A DNA stretch of 64,000 bases, taken from positions 2,944,001 to 3,008,000 of the forward strand of contig OZ250172.1 of NCBI GenBank assembly GCA_965237905.1, read 5' to 3'. The notes under the pieces were generated by a model. The model had not been told where the DNA came from. It saw nothing but the letters and a program-made list of their open reading frames with translations, and searched no databases. The translations under genes and the position numbers were made by a program. The stretch comes from Nitrospinaceae bacterium (lineage in GTDB: Bacteria > Nitrospinota > Nitrospinia > Nitrospinales > Nitrospinaceae). Position 1 is the stretch's first letter. Each line of letters starts with the position of its first letter. Shown here in pieces: positions 3,501 to 53,462 of the stretch.

Positions 3501-5399
3501 TCAATTAAAATATTTTTTCCACCAGAGAGCCAGATTGAACAGGTACCAAGCCAGAGGGGTATTTCGATTTTTCATGAGTTTTTCAACCGTTGAGAAATTG
3601 AGATAATCGGTTTTTTCCGTAAATTCTTTTAACTCATCCAGTACCTGTGGTCCCAGTCGGTCTAGAAACCATTCGTGGATTGGGACGCCGAATCCCTGCT
3701 TTTTGCGGTCGATCAACTCATCCGGTATCAGACCCCGAACCGATTTCTTGAGGATATGTTTCAAGTTGCCATTTTTTGTTTTGACCGATTCCGGAATGCT
3801 CATCGCCAGTTCGACAAATTTGTGGTCCAGGAAAGGCACCCGGGCTTCCAGGCTGACCCCCATACTCATTTTATCCACTCGCATCAACAGCAGTTCCGGA
3901 AGACGCATATTGAGGTCCAAGTAGCTCATCCATTGCAGTGGTTTTTGTTCCCAGGCTTTTTGACGGAAACGGTCATAAATCGGTTTTAGTGCTTCCCATG
4001 AAGAAAAATTCTGAAAGCGCTTTTTAAGGCGCGGGGAAAGGAGGTCTTGTTTTTGCGCCTCCGTAAAGGCCTCAGCGCCACCCCAGAACACCGGCAAATC
4101 ATTAGCTCCCCGCCGGAGCCATTCGTAATATAAAGTCTTTTCCCGGCCCAGCAGGCGCAGTCCCGCGAGACCGAATTTTTTGAGAGGGGAGGGAACCGGC
4201 CAGGCATTTTTGTATTGCAGTTCCAGCATCAGTTTCCAGTTGGGGTAACCCCAGAACAGTTCATCGGCCCCCTCGCCCACCTGGCAGACAGTCACCCCAT
4301 TGTCACGCGCCAGCTTTGAAACATAGTATACAGGGACGCATACGGGGTCGGCGATCGGTTCATCCTGTAGATGAATCATTTCCGGTAAAAAATCGATCAA
4401 GTCGTCCAGGGTGAGCAGGCGGTCATGATATTCGGCTCCCACTTCTTCGGCCATGCGCCGGGCAAAATGGATTTCGTTTTGATAGCTTTCGTATTCTCCC
4501 TGGTAGCCGATTGAAAAGGTACGGATGGGTTTGGATTCCCCCTCTGAAAACAAAGCCGCATTGGTGCTGGAATCGACACCTCCGGAAAGAAACACCCCAA
4601 CCGGCACATCGCTTACTTTTCGTAACTGGACCGCGGTTCGCAGTTCCTCCAGTATGCGTTCGCTGATTTCATCTTCGGACACATCCGTAAGAGGTTGGGT
4701 GTGATCCCATACATCCCAATACTTGTATTCCTTCACCGTTCCATCGGCGGTCACCCGTAACCAGGTACCGGGTGCCAGTTTTTGTATTCCATCGAACAGG
4801 GTTTGCGGGCCGGGCGTCGTCAAAAATGATAGATAATGGTAAAGTGCTTCCTCGTTCACCGCCCGTTGTTGCTCAGGATCTTCCAGTAAGGCCTTGATTT
4901 CTGACGCAAAGGTGAGCCGACCATGATGAATACTGTAATACAGCGGCTTGATGCCGATGCGGTCACGGACCAGATACAATTCCTTCTTACGATTGTCCCA
5001 CAGGCCGAAGGCGAACATGCCGCGGAATTTGTGAAGCGCATCGATCCCCCACTTTTCATAAGCATGGAGGATGACCTCGGTATCGGAGTGATCCGTTTTC
5101 CACTGATTAAAACCATCTTTTATTAATTCGGAACGAATCTCAGCGTGATTGTAAATTTCGCCGTTGAAGGTGAGCCATAACGACCGGTCCGCATTGCACA
5201 TGGGTTGTGCGGCGGCTTCAGATAAATCGATGATGGACAAGCGTCTATGGCCGAAGCCTACTTTGCCGTTATCGGAAATCCAAGTTCCACAACCATCGGG
5301 ACCGCGATGGATCATGGTGTCTCTCATCCGTTCGATATAGTCCCTTTTGATTTCAAAAGAGCTATTTTTAAACGCGATGGCGCCGACTATTCCGCACAT
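3501..5399 (-). CDS. asnB: Asparagine synthase (glutamine-hydrolysing) family amidotransferase
   Basis: N-terminal MCGI nucleophile, HRGPD, GHRRLSIID, NGEIYN, LSGGVDSS, GEGADELFWGY, LEARVPFLD. Confidence 0.95.
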   Translation of the reverse strand: MCGIVGAIAFKNSSFEIKRDYIERMRDTMIHRGPDGCGTWISDNGKVGFGHRRLSIIDLSEAAAQPMCNADRSLWLTFNGEIYNHAEIRSELIKDGFNQWKTDHSDTEVILHAYEKWGIDALHKFRGMFAFGLWDNRKKELYLVRDRIGIKPLYYSIHHGRLTFASEIKALLEDPEQQRAVNEEALYHYLSFLTTPGPQTLFDGIQKLAPGTWLRVTADGTVKEYKYWDVWDHTQPLTDVSEDEISERILEELRTAVQLRKVSDVPVGVFLSGGVDSSTNAALFSEGESKPIRTFSIGYQGEYESYQNEIHFARRMAEEVGAEYHDRLLTLDDLIDFLPEMIHLQDEPIADPVCVPVYYVSKLARDNGVTVCQVGEGADELFWGYPNWKLMLELQYKNAWPVPSPLKKFGLAGLRLLGREKTLYYEWLRRGANDLPVFWGGAEAFTEAQKQDLLSPRLKKRFQNFSSWEALKPIYDRFRQKAWEQKPLQWMSYLDLNMRLPELLLMRVDKMSMGVSLEARVPFLDHKFVELAMSIPESVKTKNGNLKHILKKSVRGLIPDELIDRKKQGFGVPIHEWFLDRLGPQVLDELKEFTEKTDYLNFSTVEKLMKNRNTPLAWYLFNLALWWKKYFN

Positions 5400-9898: not shown

Positions 9899-11301
9899 TT
9901 TCTGTTTTTTCTCTGAGTGGATGTAAATAAAAACGAATCGAGTTCATCCAGGGAAACTTCTTTTTTATCTGATGATTCATTAACTGGACGCGAATCTTGA
10001 ATTCGATCTTTTCGCATCTTTCCGTTAACCGGGTTTTCTCTTGGCATCAGCTCGCCGGGTATTGATACCAATTGATTTTCCAGATCGACCTGTAAAGCAT
10101 TCAGCCGGGCAATCACCACATCCACCATATCGGCCGGCAACTTTTTGTGGGAAACTGGATTTACCGTTTCCAATTCCTCCTGATCGAGGTATTTGAGGTC
10201 GAGGAGAAACGGTTTGGGTTTCGCCTTTTCAGGAGAAGTTTTTATACCCTCTCGCTGAGGTGGAACCGCTGTTACTTCCGCCTCGGTTTTCTGAGTTTTC
10301 CCGACCTTGGAAGAGGGCGCTTTTGCTTTCTGCTTCCCAGCCTCTTTTTTAGCTATATTCTTATGAGAAACTACTGGAGCTTTTATTTCAACTGATTTTG
10401 GCTTGGATTCCGAAACTTCTATCTCCAATCCCGGAGAATCCGCTTTGATTTTTACTGGTTTTTGCGGTTTGGAGTCCCTTTTCTCTTCGGATTTAGGGGC
10501 AATGTTCTTTACTTTCATACCCGGTTTTTCTTTTTGGGAAGGTTTTGGGGATTTCTTAGCCTCTGATTGATGCCTCGCCTTGGGGGAAGCTTTAAAGGTC
10601 GGGATACTTTCAGATTGCTCCAACGCTGGAAGAGGTTCGATGATTAACCCCGGTATTTCGGCTTCGACCCAATTGTCATCGGATTCTTCGTTCTCGCTGA
10701 TGGGAAGTTTACGGGAATCTTCATCCACCTTGGTCTTCTGGTACTTGGCCGGGGCTTTACTCTTTTTTCCTTTTAGAGGTTCAGAGGGAGCCTTTTTTGA
10801 GAGTACCCTGTTTTCGCCAGGCGAAATGGAAAACTCCTGCTTAATCAATTTGACTTTTTTCTTGGGGTCCGGAGGAGGCTCCTTTGCCTTGCTATGGGAA
10901 ATAGACACCCCTTCTTTAACAATTTTTACCGGTTTCTCTTTTTCTTCGTTTTCTTCTTCTGCAGGAAACGGTGGGATACCCCCATCTCCCAGCGTCTTGG
11001 GGGGAGTGGGCAAATCCTCCATGAGGTAGGCCACGGACCTGTCTTTAGGAGAGGTGGGTTTTTCGTACAGGGTCTCTTTCTTTTCGGATTCCCCGTCATG
11101 GGCAGCTTTAAACTCTTCCTCTTCAAATCGCCCTACGGCTCTATCCAACGCGGTACTTTCTTTTTGGAGAAGGATGTAGCGAAGGGCACGGGGAAGAACG
11201 GCCAGGAATAGGAGTACAGACAGTAATAATAAAGTATTCCCAAAAAGCAGATGGGTGGTGTCCACTTGCTCGAGGGCGGTTTGGGGAGTCGAATATTCCA
11301 T
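9895..11301 (-). CDS. Single-pass membrane protein with a long K/P/E-rich low-complexity region
   Basis: Probable ATG at 11301 (MEYST), one N-terminal hydrophobic helix, ATGA overlap with the ATPase gene. Confidence 0.7.
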   Translation of the reverse strand: MEYSTPQTALEQVDTTHLLFGNTLLLLSVLLFLAVLPRALRYILLQKESTALDRAVGRFEEEEFKAAHDGESEKKETLYEKPTSPKDRSVAYLMEDLPTPPKTLGDGGIPPFPAEEENEEKEKPVKIVKEGVSISHSKAKEPPPDPKKKVKLIKQEFSISPGENRVLSKKAPSEPLKGKKSKAPAKYQKTKVDEDSRKLPISENEESDDNWVEAEIPGLIIEPLPALEQSESIPTFKASPKARHQSEAKKSPKPSQKEKPGMKVKNIAPKSEEKRDSKPQKPVKIKADSPGLEIEVSESKPKSVEIKAPVVSHKNIAKKEAGKQKAKAPSSKVGKTQKTEAEVTAVPPQREGIKTSPEKAKPKPFLLDLKYLDQEELETVNPVSHKKLPADMVDVVIARLNALQVDLENQLVSIPGELMPRENPVNGKMRKDRIQDSRPVNESSDKKEVSLDELDSFLFTSTQRKNRK

Positions 11302-47967: not shown

Positions 47968-48831
47968 TTAAAGGGCTTGAAGAACCGCGTCCAGCCGCTC
48001 GAAAGCTTCTTTTCCTTTGAGGGGTAAAAGGTACTTCGTGCCGACAATGGAGTTGGCGGAAGGGTCCAGATTGATGTTGATCGCCGGTGCGCCCTGCCTC
48101 ATGAACTCAAGGGCAAGATAATCGTTGGTGGGAACGGCGCCCGAACTTCCAACCAGAATCACCAAATCGACCGGCTCTCTCGCGAATGAATGAAAATTCT
48201 TTTCCTGCTCCGGGTGGCCGGTGTATTCCCCATCGCCAAACATCAGAATGTGCGGACGGGCGACGCCGCGGCAACGGGGGCACTTGGGATACTTCGAGGC
48301 TTTCATGGTGTCGTGATCGAGATCGCACAGGGGAACCGAATCCTCCTGCCAGTAGGCATAAGAACAGACATTCAGGCACTGGAGCCGCCACATGGACCCG
48401 TGAACCTCTTTCACCTTGTCGGCGGGGCACCCCGACCGCAAATGATAGCCATCGGTATTGGTGGTGTGAATGAACGCGTCATCGAAATGTTCCTCGATCC
48501 ATTTGTTGATAATGGTGTATCCAGCATGAGGCTGGTTTTCGTCGGCATTACGACGTCGCCATTCGTAAAACGCCCAGGCATGGGGAAGTTCGTTGCGGAA
48601 AGCCCAGGGGCTGGCCAAATCCTGCGCCTCCAACCCTTTTTCTTTGAAGGGTGGAAAATTACTCCAGTAACCCTCCTTGTCGCGGAAGGTGGGGATATTG
48701 GAATCGGCGCTCATGCCGGCGCTGGTGAGAAACACGACGCGCCGGGCGTCGTGGATCAGTTGGGCGCATTGTTTAATAAGTTGGTCAGTATCCATATCCG
48801 AGTTCAAAGTTCGCCATTCCTTTTCCCGCAA
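47968..48831 (-). CDS. Sir2-family NAD-dependent deacylase-like protein
   Basis: TSAGMSADSNIPTFR, TNTDG, EVHGS, C..VC/CPRC zinc site, RPHILMFGD, VGSSG. Start is TTG 48831 or ATG 48795. Confidence 0.9.
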   Translation of the reverse strand: MREKEWRTLNSDMDTDQLIKQCAQLIHDARRVVFLTSAGMSADSNIPTFRDKEGYWSNFPPFKEKGLEAQDLASPWAFRNELPHAWAFYEWRRRNADENQPHAGYTIINKWIEEHFDDAFIHTTNTDGYHLRSGCPADKVKEVHGSMWRLQCLNVCSYAYWQEDSVPLCDLDHDTMKASKYPKCPRCRGVARPHILMFGDGEYTGHPEQEKNFHSFAREPVDLVILVGSSGAVPTNDYLALEFMRQGAPAININLDPSANSIVGTKYLLPLKGKEAFERLDAVLQAL

Positions 48832-48972
48832 AAGGTCCGCAAATTGTCGGTTAATATATTATTTGGCGGCTTACGATCTGTATGATCGAACGTCTGCTTT
48901 TGCACCATAGGTGTTATCACGCAGAAACAGCTCAGAGATCAAAAACTCTGAAAAAGAATTGACGGAATAGAT

Positions 48973-49386
48973 TCATTTTTTTTCAAACAGGGCATCCAGA
49001 ATCGGGCATTCGGGTATTACACCGCCTTCACACTGCGAAGAAATTTTAGCCAGTATTTTTTCCAGCTTTTTTAAATCCACAATCTTCCGGCGAATATCTC
49101 CAAGATGATGAAGTGTGATCTTTTGCACTTGAACGCAGGTGTTTTCGCCACCATCAACCAACCTCAAGAGAGCCCGAATTTCTTCAAGTGAAAAACCCAG
49201 GCCCCTGCCACGGCGTATGAAAACCAGCCGCTTCAGGTGATTTTCACTATAAATCCGATGTCCACCTTCAGTTCGAGGTGGTTTTGGGAATATCGCAATC
49301 TTTTCGTAATAGCGGATTGTCTCAATCTTGCAGTGAGTGAGATCGGACAAAACTCCAATAGTTAATCTTTTTTCTCTATTTTGCAT
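48973..49386 (-). CDS. MerR-family metal-responsive regulator (three-Cys Hg/Cd/Pb type)
   Basis: Start MQNREK after AGGAG; TIG...ETIRYYE...RTEGGHRIY, LGFSLEEI; Cys in NTC, SQC and ECPI. Confidence 0.93.
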   Translation of the reverse strand: MQNREKRLTIGVLSDLTHCKIETIRYYEKIAIFPKPPRTEGGHRIYSENHLKRLVFIRRGRGLGFSLEEIRALLRLVDGGENTCVQVQKITLHHLGDIRRKIVDLKKLEKILAKISSQCEGGVIPECPILDALFEKK

Positions 49387-49394
49387 AAAACTCC

Positions 49395-49425
49395 TTGAAC
49401 CTGTAGTTACTACAGGTTTTATATT
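49395..49425 (+). promoter_or_regulatory. MerR-type promoter/operator
   Basis: TTGAAC (49395-49400), 19 bp, TATATT (49420-49425); perfect dyad aacctgtagt-t-actacaggtt at 49398-49418. Confidence 0.92.
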
Positions 49426-49476
49426 ATAAGCGAAAAAATGATTTTTGGGAAATGACTTTAAAACCGGGAGAGGATC

Positions 49477-50187
49477 ATGGACAAAACACAGATCAATCAA
49501 GAAATCGTATCGGCTTTTAAGCTTGGCATCCCTCCAGTAGCAATGGCCTTCGTTGATGGACAACCGGACGGCGTGAGCACTATTGAGGGTGAATACCCCT
49601 CGTTTTGTACCTTTTGGCGCATGGCTGAGGAAAAAGTATTCTATGCACCGGCGGATAAACATTACAACTGTCCGATTGGAGCCATGATATTGGGGATCGA
49701 GATGCCCAAAGAGGTGCAGGAAGAACTGGGTGGCTTGGTTGAAAAAATGTGTGAATGTTCTTACCTGTCCGAGGATGAACCGGCAAATATTCCCACCCTT
49801 TCCAAGAAAATGAGCGGCGTGGTATATGGTCCATTGAAAGGCTTTCCGGTGGAACCTGAACTGGTCATGATGTGGTTGAAACCTTCACAGGCGATGATCT
49901 ACAACGAGGTTTTAGGTTGCTGTAAATGGTCGGAAAGCATGCAATCTATGGCGTTAGGAAGACCGGCTTGCGCGGTGATTCCAACAACCCTGGACAAGTC
50001 TCCGTTTGGGATGTCGCTAGGTTGTACCGGAATGCGTACCTTCACCGAAATCAGTGATGAACATATTCTGGCCACACTCAACTTTAGAGAGATAGATTCG
50101 TTCCTGACCAATCTTAAATCTACGGTATCGGCCAATAAAGAGATGGAAGAAATTTATATAAGCAAGAAAAACCAATTCGCCAATTAA
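49477..50187 (+). CDS. DUF169 domain protein
   Basis: PVA, FC, CPIGA..LG, YGPL..FP..P, ACA, SLGCTGMR. Confidence 0.85.
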   Translation: MDKTQINQEIVSAFKLGIPPVAMAFVDGQPDGVSTIEGEYPSFCTFWRMAEEKVFYAPADKHYNCPIGAMILGIEMPKEVQEELGGLVEKMCECSYLSEDEPANIPTLSKKMSGVVYGPLKGFPVEPELVMMWLKPSQAMIYNEVLGCCKWSESMQSMALGRPACAVIPTTLDKSPFGMSLGCTGMRTFTEISDEHILATLNFREIDSFLTNLKSTVSANKEMEEIYISKKNQFAN

Positions 50188-50262
50188 TAATTATCCTTTT
50201 ATAAAAGCAAGCCGGTTCCTTGGTTTGTTTAAATGAAGTTGTTCCACACGTAGGTTGAGACC

Positions 50263-50895
50263 ATGTCGTTTGTTTATATGAAAATCCTTGAATCCCGTCC
50301 CGAACGATACGATATAGGAATGGGTCTGTTGACTTTGGGATCGTTGACAAAAATTAAACGGCAAATCGCAGATCATGTTAATCCCGGAAATCGAGTCCTC
50401 GATTTGGGCTGCGGGACCGGAACATTGGCACAAATGTGCATTGAACGAGGGGCGCAGGTGGCTGGGGTAGATGCCAACAGCGGTATGCTTGAAGTGGCAA
50501 AGAGAAATTCGCCTTCTGCAAATTTTCTTAACATCAGCCTTAGCAATCTGGATGAGCATTTAGAGGATGAATCATTCGATATTATTTTAAGCACTCTTGC
50601 ATTCAGCGAATTGACCCGCGCAGAGAGACTTCATGTATTGAAACAAATCAAAAGAATCTTGAAAAAAGAAGGAAAGGTTCTTATCGGTGACGAAATAATT
50701 CCGGAAAATTTATCCGCCAAATGTTTTTACTATGCTTTCAGATTACCCATGCGGCTTCTTACCTGGATCGTGACCCAAAACACCACTAACGCTATTTCTA
50801 ATTTCGATGATGATGTGCAGCAGGCGGGCATGGAAATAGTCAGCCGCAAGCCGTTTATGTTGGGCATGTTCATCCTTTTGGAAATTAAAAAATGA
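50263..50895 (+). CDS. SAM-dependent methyltransferase, resembling corrinoid-protein-associated (CpaM-like) methyltransferases
   Basis: VLDLGCGTG, GVDAN, FDIILSTLAFSEL; N-terminus YMKILESRPERYD; ATGA overlap with the next gene. The subfamily call is from memory. Confidence 0.85.
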   Translation: MSFVYMKILESRPERYDIGMGLLTLGSLTKIKRQIADHVNPGNRVLDLGCGTGTLAQMCIERGAQVAGVDANSGMLEVAKRNSPSANFLNISLSNLDEHLEDESFDIILSTLAFSELTRAERLHVLKQIKRILKKEGKVLIGDEIIPENLSAKCFYYAFRLPMRLLTWIVTQNTTNAISNFDDDVQQAGMEIVSRKPFMLGMFILLEIKK

Positions 50896-51761
50896 TCGGT
50901 TGGATTAAAGACATCTATCAAACGCTATTTCGGTTTGCCCGGTTTCCGTGCGAACCTGAAACCATTGCTATCGGGAATCCTGCAAAATACTCGCCGGTTC
51001 TTGTCACCTGCAATTTTGATTATACGGTCAGACATTTAAAGAATTATTTGGAAGAAGAGCATATAGATTGCTTTCTTCTGGTGGTCAATACCAAAGGCAC
51101 CAACGTCTGGTGCGCGGCGGCTGAAGGTATTTTTACAACCGAAACGGTTCTTGCCCATTTAAAGGTTTATAATGTAAGAGAGCTTGTTAATCACACCAAC
51201 TTGATACTTCCGCAATTGTCTGTGGCTGGAGTAAAAAGAAAAGCTCTCAAAGAACATGGCTGGGAAGGAATTTATGGTCCGGTTTACTTTGCCGACTTAA
51301 AGGAATTTTTGGATAACGACTTTCGCAAGACCAAGGACATGCAGGCTCTAGAATATGGATACTGGGAGCGTTTTAAAATGGGTCTCAGCCATGCGGTTTT
51401 CTGCACATTAGTTTGCATACTTCCAATTTTTCTTTTTGCTTCCGAGTTGTGGCTTCAAGCCATCGTTTTAGTCTGGTACTTCGCTTTCAGTATGCAATTA
51501 ATTGAACATTTTATTCCCTTCGATAGATTGCTATACAAAGGTCTAGCGCTTTCCTTGCCAATTCTGGTACTGGTGCTGTTTTTCTCAATAGATACTGTTT
51601 TGCAAATCCAGGTAATAATCGGGATTATTGCCTTAGGTGCTTTTATTGGATTCGATGCCCAAGGTCATTCCCATCTCGGGCAAAATCAGAATTCGGGAAA
51701 ACTTACTGCTGGGATTTTTGCATTTTTGGCTTTATCTTATGGAGGTTTATTATTGCTATGA
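50892..51761 (+). CDS. HgcA-like corrinoid-binding membrane protein (CdhD/HgcA fold plus TM domain), no ferredoxin domain
   Basis: IGNP...SPVLVTCNFDYT, LLVVNTKGTNVWCAAAEGIF, LILPQLSVAGV, YGPV...DL, then about 5 TM helices. Confidence 0.88.
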   Translation: MIGWIKDIYQTLFRFARFPCEPETIAIGNPAKYSPVLVTCNFDYTVRHLKNYLEEEHIDCFLLVVNTKGTNVWCAAAEGIFTTETVLAHLKVYNVRELVNHTNLILPQLSVAGVKRKALKEHGWEGIYGPVYFADLKEFLDNDFRKTKDMQALEYGYWERFKMGLSHAVFCTLVCILPIFLFASELWLQAIVLVWYFAFSMQLIEHFIPFDRLLYKGLALSLPILVLVLFFSIDTVLQIQVIIGIIALGAFIGFDAQGHSHLGQNQNSGKLTAGIFAFLALSYGGLLLL

Positions 51762-51946
51762 AAAAATTTGTGGATTGGGACAAGATAGAAGAGGAAACGG
51801 GTTCTGCCGAGGAAGCCTGTGAATGCACTAGAAGCAAATTACAATCACTGATTGATTTCGTGGTGGAATTATTTCCCAAGAAAAAGGATTCATCTTGTTG
51901 TCCCGAAATGAATGAAAAAGAAAATGGCCAATGCAATGACAACTGA
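51758..51946 (+). CDS. Small Cys-rich acidic protein
   Basis: 62 aa with CEC, SCC and a further Cys; ATGA overlap with the hgcA-like gene. Confidence 0.6.
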   Translation: MKKFVDWDKIEEETGSAEEACECTRSKLQSLIDFVVELFPKKKDSSCCPEMNEKENGQCNDN

Positions 51947-52364
51947 TACCTCAAGCTCGGCGAAAACGGTAGAAACTTCTATTTGTCCTACCTGTGGTTG
52001 TTCTTTAATAAGGTTGGGCATCGGTTCGGATCGATGGGCAAAAACTACTTACGCAGGCAAGGAGTATTTCTTTTGTTGCCAGGGTTGCGCTGATCTGTTC
52101 AATCAACAACCTCAAAAATACCTTGAGGAAACCAAGGATTTAGTCGTTTGTCCGACTTGTTTGGCAGAAAAACCGGTGCAGTGGGCTGTGCGCATGGAAA
52201 TTGCCGGATGGGAAGTGTTTTTTTGTCGATGTCCATATTGTCCGGACGTATTCCGAAAGGACCCGGACCACTACGTCAAACGTTTACAAGGTGAGATCGC
52301 TTATGATGGTGTGTTCGGTCAGGCCGGATGTTGTTCCACGGACACACAGGGGAACGCTGAGTGA
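51936..52364 (+). CDS. Tandem YHS/TRASH-like metal-binding protein (13 Cys)
   Basis: CPTCGC...YAGKEYFFCCQGCADLF...PQKY; CPTC...FFCRCPYCPDVFRKDPDHY; C-terminal GCC. Start is 51936, 51924 or 51912. Confidence 0.85.
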   Translation: MTTDTSSSAKTVETSICPTCGCSLIRLGIGSDRWAKTTYAGKEYFFCCQGCADLFNQQPQKYLEETKDLVVCPTCLAEKPVQWAVRMEIAGWEVFFCRCPYCPDVFRKDPDHYVKRLQGEIAYDGVFGQAGCCSTDTQGNAE

Positions 52365-52445
52365 ATGTTTTTCGAAGCGCGGCTTCATAAAGCGTAGATA
52401 AGATTTGGTGTGGAGTTTTGTGCTATGCGCTGATATTGGCGGATA

Positions 52446-53090: not shown

Positions 53091-53126
53091 GAATATTCTA
53101 TGTTTTTTGGTGATTGCAAAGGCAGA

Positions 53127-53330
53127 AGGAAGAATCCCCCCGGCCCCCTTTACAAGGGGGAGCCAAAGCAAAAATCTCCTCTCCCCTCATGGGGAGCACC
53201 CACGGGGTGACGGATTAAGGTGTGCCAGCGTAACGCTGGACTTAATATATCCTCCCCTTACCAAGGGGAGGACTGAGGAGGGGTTATGATAACCTCCCCT
53301 GTATCCCCTCCTTAGTTAGTAAGGAGGGGA
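53127..53330. repeat. Cluster of REP-like hairpin elements
   Basis: ccccctt-tac-aaggggg (53144-53160), ctcccc-tcat-ggggag (53181-53196), tcctcccctt-acc-aaggggagga (53250-53272), tcccctcctta-gttag-taaggagggga (53304-53330). Confidence 0.8.
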
Positions 53331-53462
53331 GTCATTATAGCGGCATCTTTCTTTTATGCTTACGCAAAGGCCCCCTGTTGAACGCGGTGACCGAAAGCAT
53401 TATTATGTCTCTACTATGAAATATCAACGGTCAAATCAGATGAGGAAGGGAAGGGTGGACTC

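Follow-up and report, generated by a model that had tools for sequence, protein, structure and literature searches.

A MerR-headed operon with a predicted corrinoid methyl-transfer relay in Nitrospinaceae

Introduction

Why would a bacterium keep an HgcA-like corrinoid protein, a methyltransferase and Cys-rich proteins next to a divergent MerR-family regulator? This question is raised by positions 48,973-52,364 of a 64,000-nt stretch of DNA (the window) from Nitrospinaceae bacterium contig OZ250172.1. Nitrospina-type hgcA-like genes make up 70.8% of hgcA and are counted as the dominant open-ocean Hg-methylation genes, with Hg methylation by Nitrospina still unconfirmed (PMC12874090); they have been described as lacking hgcB and untested (PMC10083202). 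The accessible part of the preprint of Villar et al. (bioRxiv 10.1101/648329) describes a Nitrospina hgcA-like cluster with MerR1, UbiE, DUF169 and YHS neighbours, to which the present locus belongs, together with the proposal that Hg induces it through merR; the first-pass annotation of the window therefore overstated the novelty of both. That part of the preprint names neither the 62-aa gene, the operator and the identity of CpaM nor merT/merP within the operon, the regulator swap and the link between YHS and mer.

Results

Gene layout and insertion site

All six ORFs were confirmed. As the first-pass annotation had described, merR (137 aa; 48,973-49,386, minus strand) is divergent from five co-oriented plus-strand genes, which encode, in order, a DUF169 protein (49,477-50,187), the corrinoid-protein-associated class I SAM methyltransferase CpaM (50,263-50,895), an HgcA-like membrane protein (50,892-51,761), a 62-aa Cys protein of no known family (Cys62; 51,758-51,946) and a double YHS/TRASH protein (51,936-52,364). 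The ATGA overlaps at 50,892-50,895 and 51,758-51,761 and the 11-nt overlap at 51,936-51,946 are also as it gave them. The merR start at 49,386 was chosen by homology (stop at 48,973); a longer frame from the ATG at 49,662 would overlap the DUF169 gene. Since each of the six genes has a dN/dS between 0.02 and 0.17 when compared with up to 10 relatives, the unit is under purifying selection and the ORFs are not chance products.

The gap between the flanking sirtuin and HD phosphohydrolase genes is approximately 3.6 kb here and 41, 408 and approximately 995 bp in the congeners G001, G008 and G010, respectively. The cassette (approximate extent 48,830-52,440) is inserted at a site that is empty in these three congeners, and the GC content of its genes is 39-48%, compared to 50.5% genome-wide.

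Conservation of the unit

Conserved copies of the unit occur at 68 loci, which are partly redundant, and the five genes are co-conserved with a MerR in all 30 loci with at least 2.45 kb of upstream sequence, the outcome that the first-pass annotation had anticipated. CpaM is retained in 56/56 loci, Cys62 in 61/63, the double YHS gene in 57/59 and the DUF169 gene in 42/43 long loci. A methanotroph-family copy (L224) comprises CpaM, the HgcA-like gene and Cys62 and lacks MerR, DUF169 and YHS; these three genes form the smallest core. None of the 68 loci has a same-strand ferredoxin motif within 3.5 kb.

Mercury genes accompany several copies. In L023, L041 and L090, merT-like genes lie within the operon (with an HMA gene also in L023), and in L058-L060, merR-merT-merP is located downstream of the unit. 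In L072, a complete merR-merT-merP-merA operon stands back to back with the unit, and its MerA passes the cut-off with 544.6 bits. Overall, merT is present at 6/68 cassette loci and at none of the other 62. At the sister locus L178/L179, the operon also includes a MerB-like gene and merTP, and the stretch read has no merA. Among 12 loci of the fused HgcAB-like family, metal-transport-like neighbours were seen, by eye and by tblastn, only at L206. With 11 candidates scored in each, 251 genomes from the order of G122 gave no CpaM; a protein search in the family of G122 gave 1/346, and the fusion profile NF043039 had no match among 13 genomes from the phylum of G123.

Regulator and operator

The predicted promoter, TTGAAC-19 nt-TATATT (49,395-49,425, plus strand), contains a perfect 10-bp dyad at 49,398-49,418 that occurs only once in the 3.09-Mb genome. 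This operator is absent from the first-pass annotation. In 28/42 loci it is no more than 130 nt away from the start of the DUF169 gene, and the same dyad class is found at merR-merT-merP(-merA) operons. The regulator has three Cys residues (C84, C119 and C127) and a dyad inside a promoter with a 19-bp spacer, as Hg-responsive MerR proteins do; these traits are also common to CadR and PbrR, so genomic context decides the regulator class. The best profile match is TIGR02051 (Hg-responsive MerR), with 116.6 bits against a cut-off of 150.85, followed by CueR (113.2) and CadR-PbrR (112.4); the MerR heading merT-merP-merA in L072 is likewise below the TIGR02051 cut-off, with 142.7 bits.

The context is that of mer operons. 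Seven plasmid homologues, chosen from the best 40 of 334 records, were examined; all seven lie in merT-merA operons, head merT-merP-merA and are 53-57% identical to the regulator. On these homologues and the comparison of operator classes, the initial idea of a CadR/PbrR-type operator was dropped. In addition, a second, co-directional MerR type (36-39% identical) replaces the first in 7/68 loci; TIGR02051 is its best match in both members scanned, and its operator resembles the one at the L072 merRTPA operon. Taken together, the comparisons support a regulator and operator of mercury type, not of Cd/Pb/Zn type, and the operon is likely switched on by Hg(II). Mercury in the ocean is picomolar, which is under the usual MerR range.

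The locus thus resembles the merR-merT-merP-(merF)-merA operons of alphaproteobacterial plasmids and of pMR68 from Pseudomonas K-62 in its regulator, divergent layout, operator class and double-YHS accessory gene and, in some copies, in merT/merP. Unlike in those operons, no merA or merB was found in the genome here, and the regulated genes encode a predicted methyl relay.

The HgcA-like protein

The corrinoid domain of HgcA/CdhD type and the TM helices claimed in the first-pass annotation were borne out by PF03599, the NVWCAA cap, four hydropathy peaks (174, 227, 245 and 280) and an AlphaFold2 model with five C-terminal helices; Foldseek ranks the HgcAB model 9a0b and structures of CFeSP as the best matches. 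Cys74 of the cap and the corrinoid-domain residues are invariant, and the protein is predicted to bind a corrinoid through Cys74; the cap region itself (residues 71-80) is poorly predicted (pLDDT 57). The dN/dS of the gene is 0.05-0.17.

The protein nevertheless fails the tests for HgcA proper. The general cap-helix motif N(V/I)WCA(A/G) is present, but the query reads NVWCAAAE and matches neither the Hg-MATE high-stringency motif NVWCAAGK nor a variant listed in PMC10087281; the cap reads AAAEG or AAVEG (NVWCAAAEG here), versus AAGKG in HgcA. The HgcA profile NF040863 gives 135.7 bits, far under the curated cut-off of 275. The HgcAB-like fusion profile NF043039 gives 228.7 bits against a cut-off of 285, over profile positions 1-240 of 350; the adjacent or fused CpaM of such fusions is present, and their fused 2[4Fe-4S] ferredoxin domain is absent from the protein. 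No match was found in plasmids.

Outside its own clade, the protein is closest to fusions (31-41% identity), and both trees place the query outside the HgcA clade. In the main tree, the HgcA clade has support of 98/98 and the query lies within a CpaM/fusion group (96/91), on a long stem (1.07 changes per column). The other, a quick tree, was not relied on because its constrained alternative had a higher likelihood. The protein thus appears to group with the CpaM/HgcAB-like fusion family, nearer than with HgcA, a placement that is not AU-significant (a sister tie to HgcA gives p-AU of 0.083 and 0.74 and is not rejected). Neither this placement nor the three-gene core figures in the first-pass annotation.

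CpaM, Cys62, DUF169 and YHS partners

CpaM scores 254.6 bits with NF043040 (cut-off 180), its SAM-binding motif is intact, and its dN/dS is 0.04-0.09. In 17/37 library proteins scanned, CpaM is fused to an HgcA-like domain, single chains that support the earlier pairing of the SAM methyltransferase with the corrinoid protein; CpaM is predicted to load methyl onto the cobalamin of the HgcA-like protein. As in the CpaM and HgcAB-like fusion systems, cpaM is followed by a corrinoid gene with overlapping stop and start. Unlike in those systems, there is no ferredoxin domain, Cys62, double YHS and DUF169 are added, and the unit is under MerR, whereas most fused-family loci read are without mer genes.

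Cys62 has an invariant DW and CECTRS, usually plus a later Cys pair, and its dN/dS is 0.02-0.06 over codons 1-42. The predicted complex of Cys62 with the HgcA-like protein scores 0.48, versus 0.01 for the best control, where 18/157 solved complexes reached the mark with a score of at most 0.60, as did both mismatches that passed; contacts agree at least 81% between runs, and the partner pLDDT is at least 58. The model faintly suggests that Cys62 may be a subunit taking the place of the Hg-binding Cys tail of HgcB. An Atlas search returned a single unnamed cluster (recognition 1720, weak). A ferredoxin remnant was rejected by eye, as Cys62 has no CxxCxxCxxxC motif.

The accessory DUF169 protein (PF02596, 80.2 bits; model pLDDT 92) has the invariant residues C44, H62, C65, C165 and C183, a predicted metal or Fe-S site; the Fe-S role is a guess from the four Cys. 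Foldseek gave no fold match at E 0.001, and the best VIA-align Z was 3.7. DUF169 as an obligatory reductant was rejected, being absent in L072 and L224.

The double YHS protein (PF04945) has 12 invariant Cys residues and a C-terminal Cys pair, and an Atlas search returned YHS clusters only. Beyond the cassette, 35/63 loci of the family have a mer gene within 4.5 kb, and in pMR68 a homologue is directly downstream of a merB-family gene. The family is mer-associated and the protein is a predicted metal chaperone.

Mercury and cobalamin genes of the host

Neither hgcB nor merA, noted as missing from the window, passes its cut-off anywhere in the genome: the best HgcB score is 30.7 of 99 bits and the best MerA score 420.8 of 454.45 bits, and two weak MerA matches that were inspected lack the C-terminal Cys pair. 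MerA passes the cut-off in only 1/17 Nitrospinota carriers. No merT was found in the genome by tblastn, and a MerB family search in this genome and four carriers gave no match, as did the control genomes; two MerB-family proteins from pMR68 likewise had no tblastn match in this genome. Neither cobS nor cbiC was found in the host, so cobalamin must be imported; its intact metH and BtuB-like receptor indicate that it likely imports and uses B12.

Discussion

Our preferred reading, held tentatively at a probability of about 0.42, is an Hg(II)-induced methyl transfer from SAM through cobalamin to mercury that occupies the usual place of MerA. Hg(II) would turn on the unit through the mercury-type MerR and operator. 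CpaM would move methyl from SAM to a cobalamin likely held by Cys74, and the methyl would then pass to mercury, likely brought by Cys62 and the double YHS protein, with Cys62 possibly standing in for the HgcB tail. The cobalt may be re-reduced by host ferredoxins, perhaps through DUF169. The cell may benefit if thiol-binding Hg(II) leaves it in methylated form, and in hosts that mostly have no MerA the unit would serve a mer-type regulon as its effector. The observed basis is the gene content and its conservation, the operator, the regulator class by context, the CpaM family and its fusions, and the lack of any hgcB or merA above cut-off. From the first-pass proposal of a metal-inducible handling system, MerR co-conservation, the mercury-type regulator and operator, and the CpaM-corrinoid pairing stand; the remainder we infer.

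The unit shares with HgcA/HgcB (NF040863, NF040864) a CdhD-type corrinoid domain, a cap Cys, a membrane domain and SAM as predicted donor; the accessible part of Zheng et al. (PMC11588087) gives SAM as the methyl donor of HgcAB, via methyl-Co-thiolate. It differs in the AAAEG cap, the lack of HgcB, the dedicated methyltransferase and the MerR control. Several points count against methylation. Cobalt needs re-reduction at every turn, the host uses oxygen, and no ferredoxin motif is nearby; the cap is altered; and the MerB-like gene of L178/L179 would undo methylation. L072 retains merA next door, so MerA replacement is not universal, and the reduced L224, the 62 loci without merT and the single metal-linked fused-family locus weigh in the same direction. 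Furthermore, tested organisms with fused HgcAB-like genes gave no MeHg (PMC10087281), and HgcAB methylation is stated to confer no resistance in the accessible part of bioRxiv 648329.

The same MeHg result, the altered cap, the MerR-free core of L224 and the scarcity of mer genes at fused-family loci would also fit a relay that methylates a non-mercury target (arsenic or some other metal or metalloid of thiophilic character, or else a thiol or a protein that suffers damage during Hg stress) and that the mer regulon captured as an accessory gene set. We consider this somewhat unlikely, because all identified metal neighbours in the branch are of mercury type (MerT, MerP, MerA, MerB-like, Hg-type operators; the absence of ars was judged by eye) and two different MerR types head the unit.

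It is slightly less likely that the unit works in the degrading direction, in which cob(I)alamin demethylates CH3Hg+ or reduces Hg(II) to Hg(0), replacing MerB or MerA, while CpaM merely reactivates oxidised cobalamin by SAM-dependent methylation or hands methyl on. The unit does fill the merA/merB slot of the regulon, in pMR68 its YHS homologue comes after a merB-family gene, and the sister operon, which has MerB-like and merTP but no merA over the stretch read, would leave Hg(II) for disposal; uptake genes within the operon would be sensible only if the product were safer. However, the intact SAM motif and the many CpaM-corrinoid fusions fit methyl loading, and methylcobalamin readily methylates Hg(II). 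Neither "corrinoid" nor "cobalamin" appears as a word in a demethylation review (PMC10114901).

The formation of ocean dimethylmercury has been described as unclear (PMC11406529), and a bolder version of the preferred methylation reading, which we regard as improbable, is a third mercury defence: a MerR-induced, HgcB-free relay that would methylate Hg(II) twice to volatile dimethylmercury, replacing MerA reduction, with marine Nitrospinota as an ocean source. Mere buffering of mercury by the Cys-rich proteins, with a corrinoid-like protein left non-catalytic after loss of its reductant, would suit the missing ferredoxin, the long stem branch and the poor cap prediction, but it is highly improbable given the strong purifying selection on CpaM and the HgcA-like gene, the invariant cap Cys and corrinoid-domain residues, and CpaM retention at every locus scored.

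The cluster is conserved in marine nitrite-oxidising bacteria, and the locus itself was already published. The analysis supplies a likely inducer and a gene set for a fair test, namely CpaM, the HgcA-like protein and Cys62 together with YHS and DUF169; an experiment on hgcA by itself, or combined with an hgcB from elsewhere, could therefore mislead. Should the unit methylate mercury, ocean MeHg production would be Hg-inducible and resistance-linked, unlike that by HgcAB; if it demethylates or acts elsewhere, marine hgcA surveys would be counting the wrong gene.

Gene content and regulation of the cassette

Rereading of the window sequence bore out the six open reading frames, strands and three overlaps of the first-pass annotation, with the merR start placed at 49386. 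In the family scan, the regulator belongs to the MerR family, under every subfamily cut-off; the gene at 49477-50187 matches DUF169; the methyltransferase is over the CpaM cut-off (254.6 bits, cut-off 180); and the last gene encodes a YHS protein. The predicted DUF169 fold is of high confidence (pLDDT 92), and structure comparison gave no clear match among solved structures. The HgcA-like protein (50892-51761) carries the corrinoid domain PF03599; of the HMM comparison proposed for it, closeness to the HgcAB-like fusion model (228.7, cut-off 285) over the HgcA model (135.7, cut-off 275) emerged, with neither cut-off reached. Family scans assigned no family to the 62-aa Cys protein (Cys62, 51758-51946). 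The claimed absence of hgcB and merA also held, as neither HgcB nor MerA exceeds its cut-off in the genome, where two weak MerA matches, when inspected, lack the C-terminal Cys pair, and tblastn found no merT, merB or second MerR of the types examined. Short intergenic repeats at 53115-53340, between the HD gene and a CbiQ-like gene, match dozens of sites in congener genomes.

By its operator and regulator matches, the regulon of the cassette is of the mercury type. A perfect 10-bp dyad at 49398-49418, present once in the genome, lies within a TTGAAC-19 nt-TATATT promoter; this dyad class is also found at merRTP(A) operons, and 28 of 42 loci have the operator directly in front of DUF169. Plasmid records gave 334 matches to the regulator, and in all seven opened, chosen from the top 40, its homologue heads a merT-merP-merA operon. 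Seven loci have, in place of the usual regulator, another MerR that is co-directional, with an operator resembling that of the merRTPA operon of L072, a locus where a complete mer operon, merA included, stands back to back with the cassette.

Conservation, mobility and mer neighbors

The cassette is a real, selected and mobile unit. Among 68 loci (59 of them on metagenome contigs and the other 9 in related genomes, many near-identical, so that counts are not independent), and restricted to contigs extending far enough, the expected co-conservation with merR was found: MerR is present in 30/30 loci, cpaM in 56/56, DUF169 in 42/43, Cys62 in 61/63 and the YHS gene in 57/59. Where contigs are long enough, none of the 68 loci has a same-strand ferredoxin motif within 3.5 kb. 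Purifying selection acts on each of the six genes (dN/dS 0.02-0.17). The distribution is patchy: of 120 genomes surveyed in the phylum, 15 carry the cassette, this one among them, and it is absent from the 20 other genomes of the host family, many incomplete. The gap between the sirtuin and HD genes is 41, 408 and about 995 bp in three congeners vs 3.6 kb here. The closest loci are labelled Nitrospinota, and two are labelled Nitrospirales or Nitrospirae.

In 21 of the 68 loci (L015:7673-7942 and 20 others; 24 matches, of which 3 lie downstream and are not counted), the slot between DUF169 and cpaM is taken by a thioredoxin-like gene (89 aa with CPxC, CxxC and CC) that is missing in the window, where the slot measures 75 bp. 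A merT-like gene occupies the slot in L023, L041 and L090, with an additional HMA gene in L023, and merR-merT-merP follows the cassette immediately in L058-L060. At L091:2340-3975, the thioredoxin-like gene and cpaM are separated by an inserted transposase-like ORF. L059 encodes twice (4569-4952 and 9981-10352), each time in a MerR-headed unit, a small RCGRTHC-motif membrane protein that matches no Pfam family and is a candidate mercury transporter.

The double-YHS family (199 genome matches) appears to be a mer accessory gene that has gone unnoticed in several phyla. Among the best 80 matches, a mer gene lies within 4.5 kb in 35 of 63 non-cassette loci, and in 29 of the 45 with at least 2.5 kb upstream. 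The sole plasmid match, 43.5% identical and with no gene listed (L084:9948-10271, pMR68 65947-66270, minus strand), is directly behind an alkylmercury lyase (merB) family gene, at 95 bp. In eight loci (L109, L115, L118, L125, L127, L134, L135, L151), often with MerT-HMA fusions, a zf_CopZ-domain gene adjoins the double-YHS gene. L106-L108, labelled Rickettsiales, Alphaproteobacterium and Pelagibacteraceae, have neither cassette nor mer genes and encode double-YHS proteins 75-77% identical to that of the window, a similarity that points to transfer between marine taxa.

Relatives and origin of the core

Outside the clade, the nearest proteins are ferredoxin-fused HgcAB-like proteins. CpaM and an HgcA-like domain share a single chain in 17 of 37 scanned library proteins, picked for length or class from the best 150, and 14 of these 17 exceed the CpaM cut-off; named members are from Asgard archaea, Anaerolineae and Abyssubacteria. 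In a careful tree built on 41 of 80 rows, L178 is the sister (95/91) of the clade without ferredoxin (100/100), and both fall within the CpaM/fusion group (96/91), separate from HgcA (98/98). The phylogeny set the protein outside the HgcA clade, but a tie with HgcA was not excluded by the AU test (p 0.083; p 0.74 on a quick tree whose search was suboptimal). Membership of the CpaM/fusion group rather than HgcA is thus favored, not proven; the placement in the accessible text of Lin et al. (PMC10083202) agrees with it. The clade cap is AAAEG or AAVEG, and the HgcA cap AAGKG.

L178 and L179 have a split form with ArsR-like, MerB-like, cpaM and HgcA-like genes, L178 additionally with a MerTP-like gene and a stand-alone ferredoxin of 70 aa. 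The MerB-like gene (L178:4581-5273, minus strand; L179:1213-1803 region), assigned by motifs with no HMM match, has an in-frame TGA at the MerB Cys159 position, past which the frame continues to a C-terminal Cys pair; its product is likely a selenoprotein, and the available part of the Haft and Gwadz preprint describes MerB-like proteins with selenocysteine (SaoL). A methanotroph-family genome (L224:4015-7519, minus strand) has cpaM, HgcA-like and Cys62 genes without MerR, DUF169 or YHS; the core therefore comprises three genes able to stand outside a mer context. A peroxiredoxin-like gene and a gene of no known function encoding 551 aa precede this core, and integrase-like genes lie near.

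Proposed function

The HgcA-like structure model best matches an HgcAB model and CFeSP structures. For HgcAB, the part of PMC11588087 consulted describes methyl transfer from SAM via methyl-Co-thiolate and proposes that the HgcB C-terminal Cys pair handles Hg. In the proposed mechanism, CpaM would load the methyl group, Cys62 and the YHS protein would supply thiols, and host ferredoxins would re-reduce cobalt; small Cys-motif ORFs are present elsewhere in the genome. Complex prediction hints that Cys62 binds the HgcA-like protein, at 0.48 vs 0.01 for the best control, with partner pLDDT no lower than 58 and contacts agreeing by 81% or more. At scores of 0.60 or less, those that reached the mark were 18 of 157 solved complexes, together with both of the mismatches that passed. 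The host encodes a BtuB-like receptor and an intact metH, and its genome gave no match to cobS or cbiC. Of 120 genomes of the phylum, 3 have a MerA over the cut-off; among the 17 carriers, 1 does.

Our best reading, at a probability of roughly 0.4, is mercury-induced methylation in the usual place of MerA; its weakest step is the reductant, none being found beside the cassette. Against it, the core of L224 lacks MerR, and only 1 of 12 fused-family loci, L206, has metal-type neighbors (ArsR, transporter-like; by eye and tblastn); a CpaM-corrinoid relay acting on a target other than mercury is a less probable alternative. Also against methylation, L072 retains merA, the MerB-like gene of L178 would counter it, and tested carriers of fused HgcAB-like proteins produced no MeHg, according to the portion of PMC10087281 consulted; that the cassette demethylates or reduces is rather unlikely. 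The boldest reading, detoxification to dimethylmercury, is doubtful; in the text available, its marine source is described as unclear (PMC11406529) and its formation by HgcAB as not tested (PMC11588087). A cassette that only binds mercury is very unlikely.

The cassette has already been drawn in print: the accessible text of Villar et al. (bioRxiv 10.1101/648329) names MerR1, UbiE, DUF169 and YHS as neighbors of the hgcA-like genes of Nitrospina and proposes Hg-induced regulation, and, within the parts covered, Lin 2023 (PMC10083202) reports hgcB missing from all Nitrospina copies and Tada 2026 (PMC12874090) describes Nitrospina activity as unconfirmed. In the literature covered, which takes in few subscription papers and no supplements and includes accessible text of PMC7347909, PMC10839748, PMC8163782, PMC12953829, PMC10073400, PMC11406529, PMC10114901 and the Haft and Gwadz preprint, we found no account of the operator, Cys62, the CpaM link, a merT gene within the operon or any functional testing. 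On three tested criteria the cassette protein falls outside HgcA, and the cassette is not a classical mer operon; judged from sequence, it would work like a hybrid of the two systems, and it turns an open ocean-mercury question into a defined experiment.
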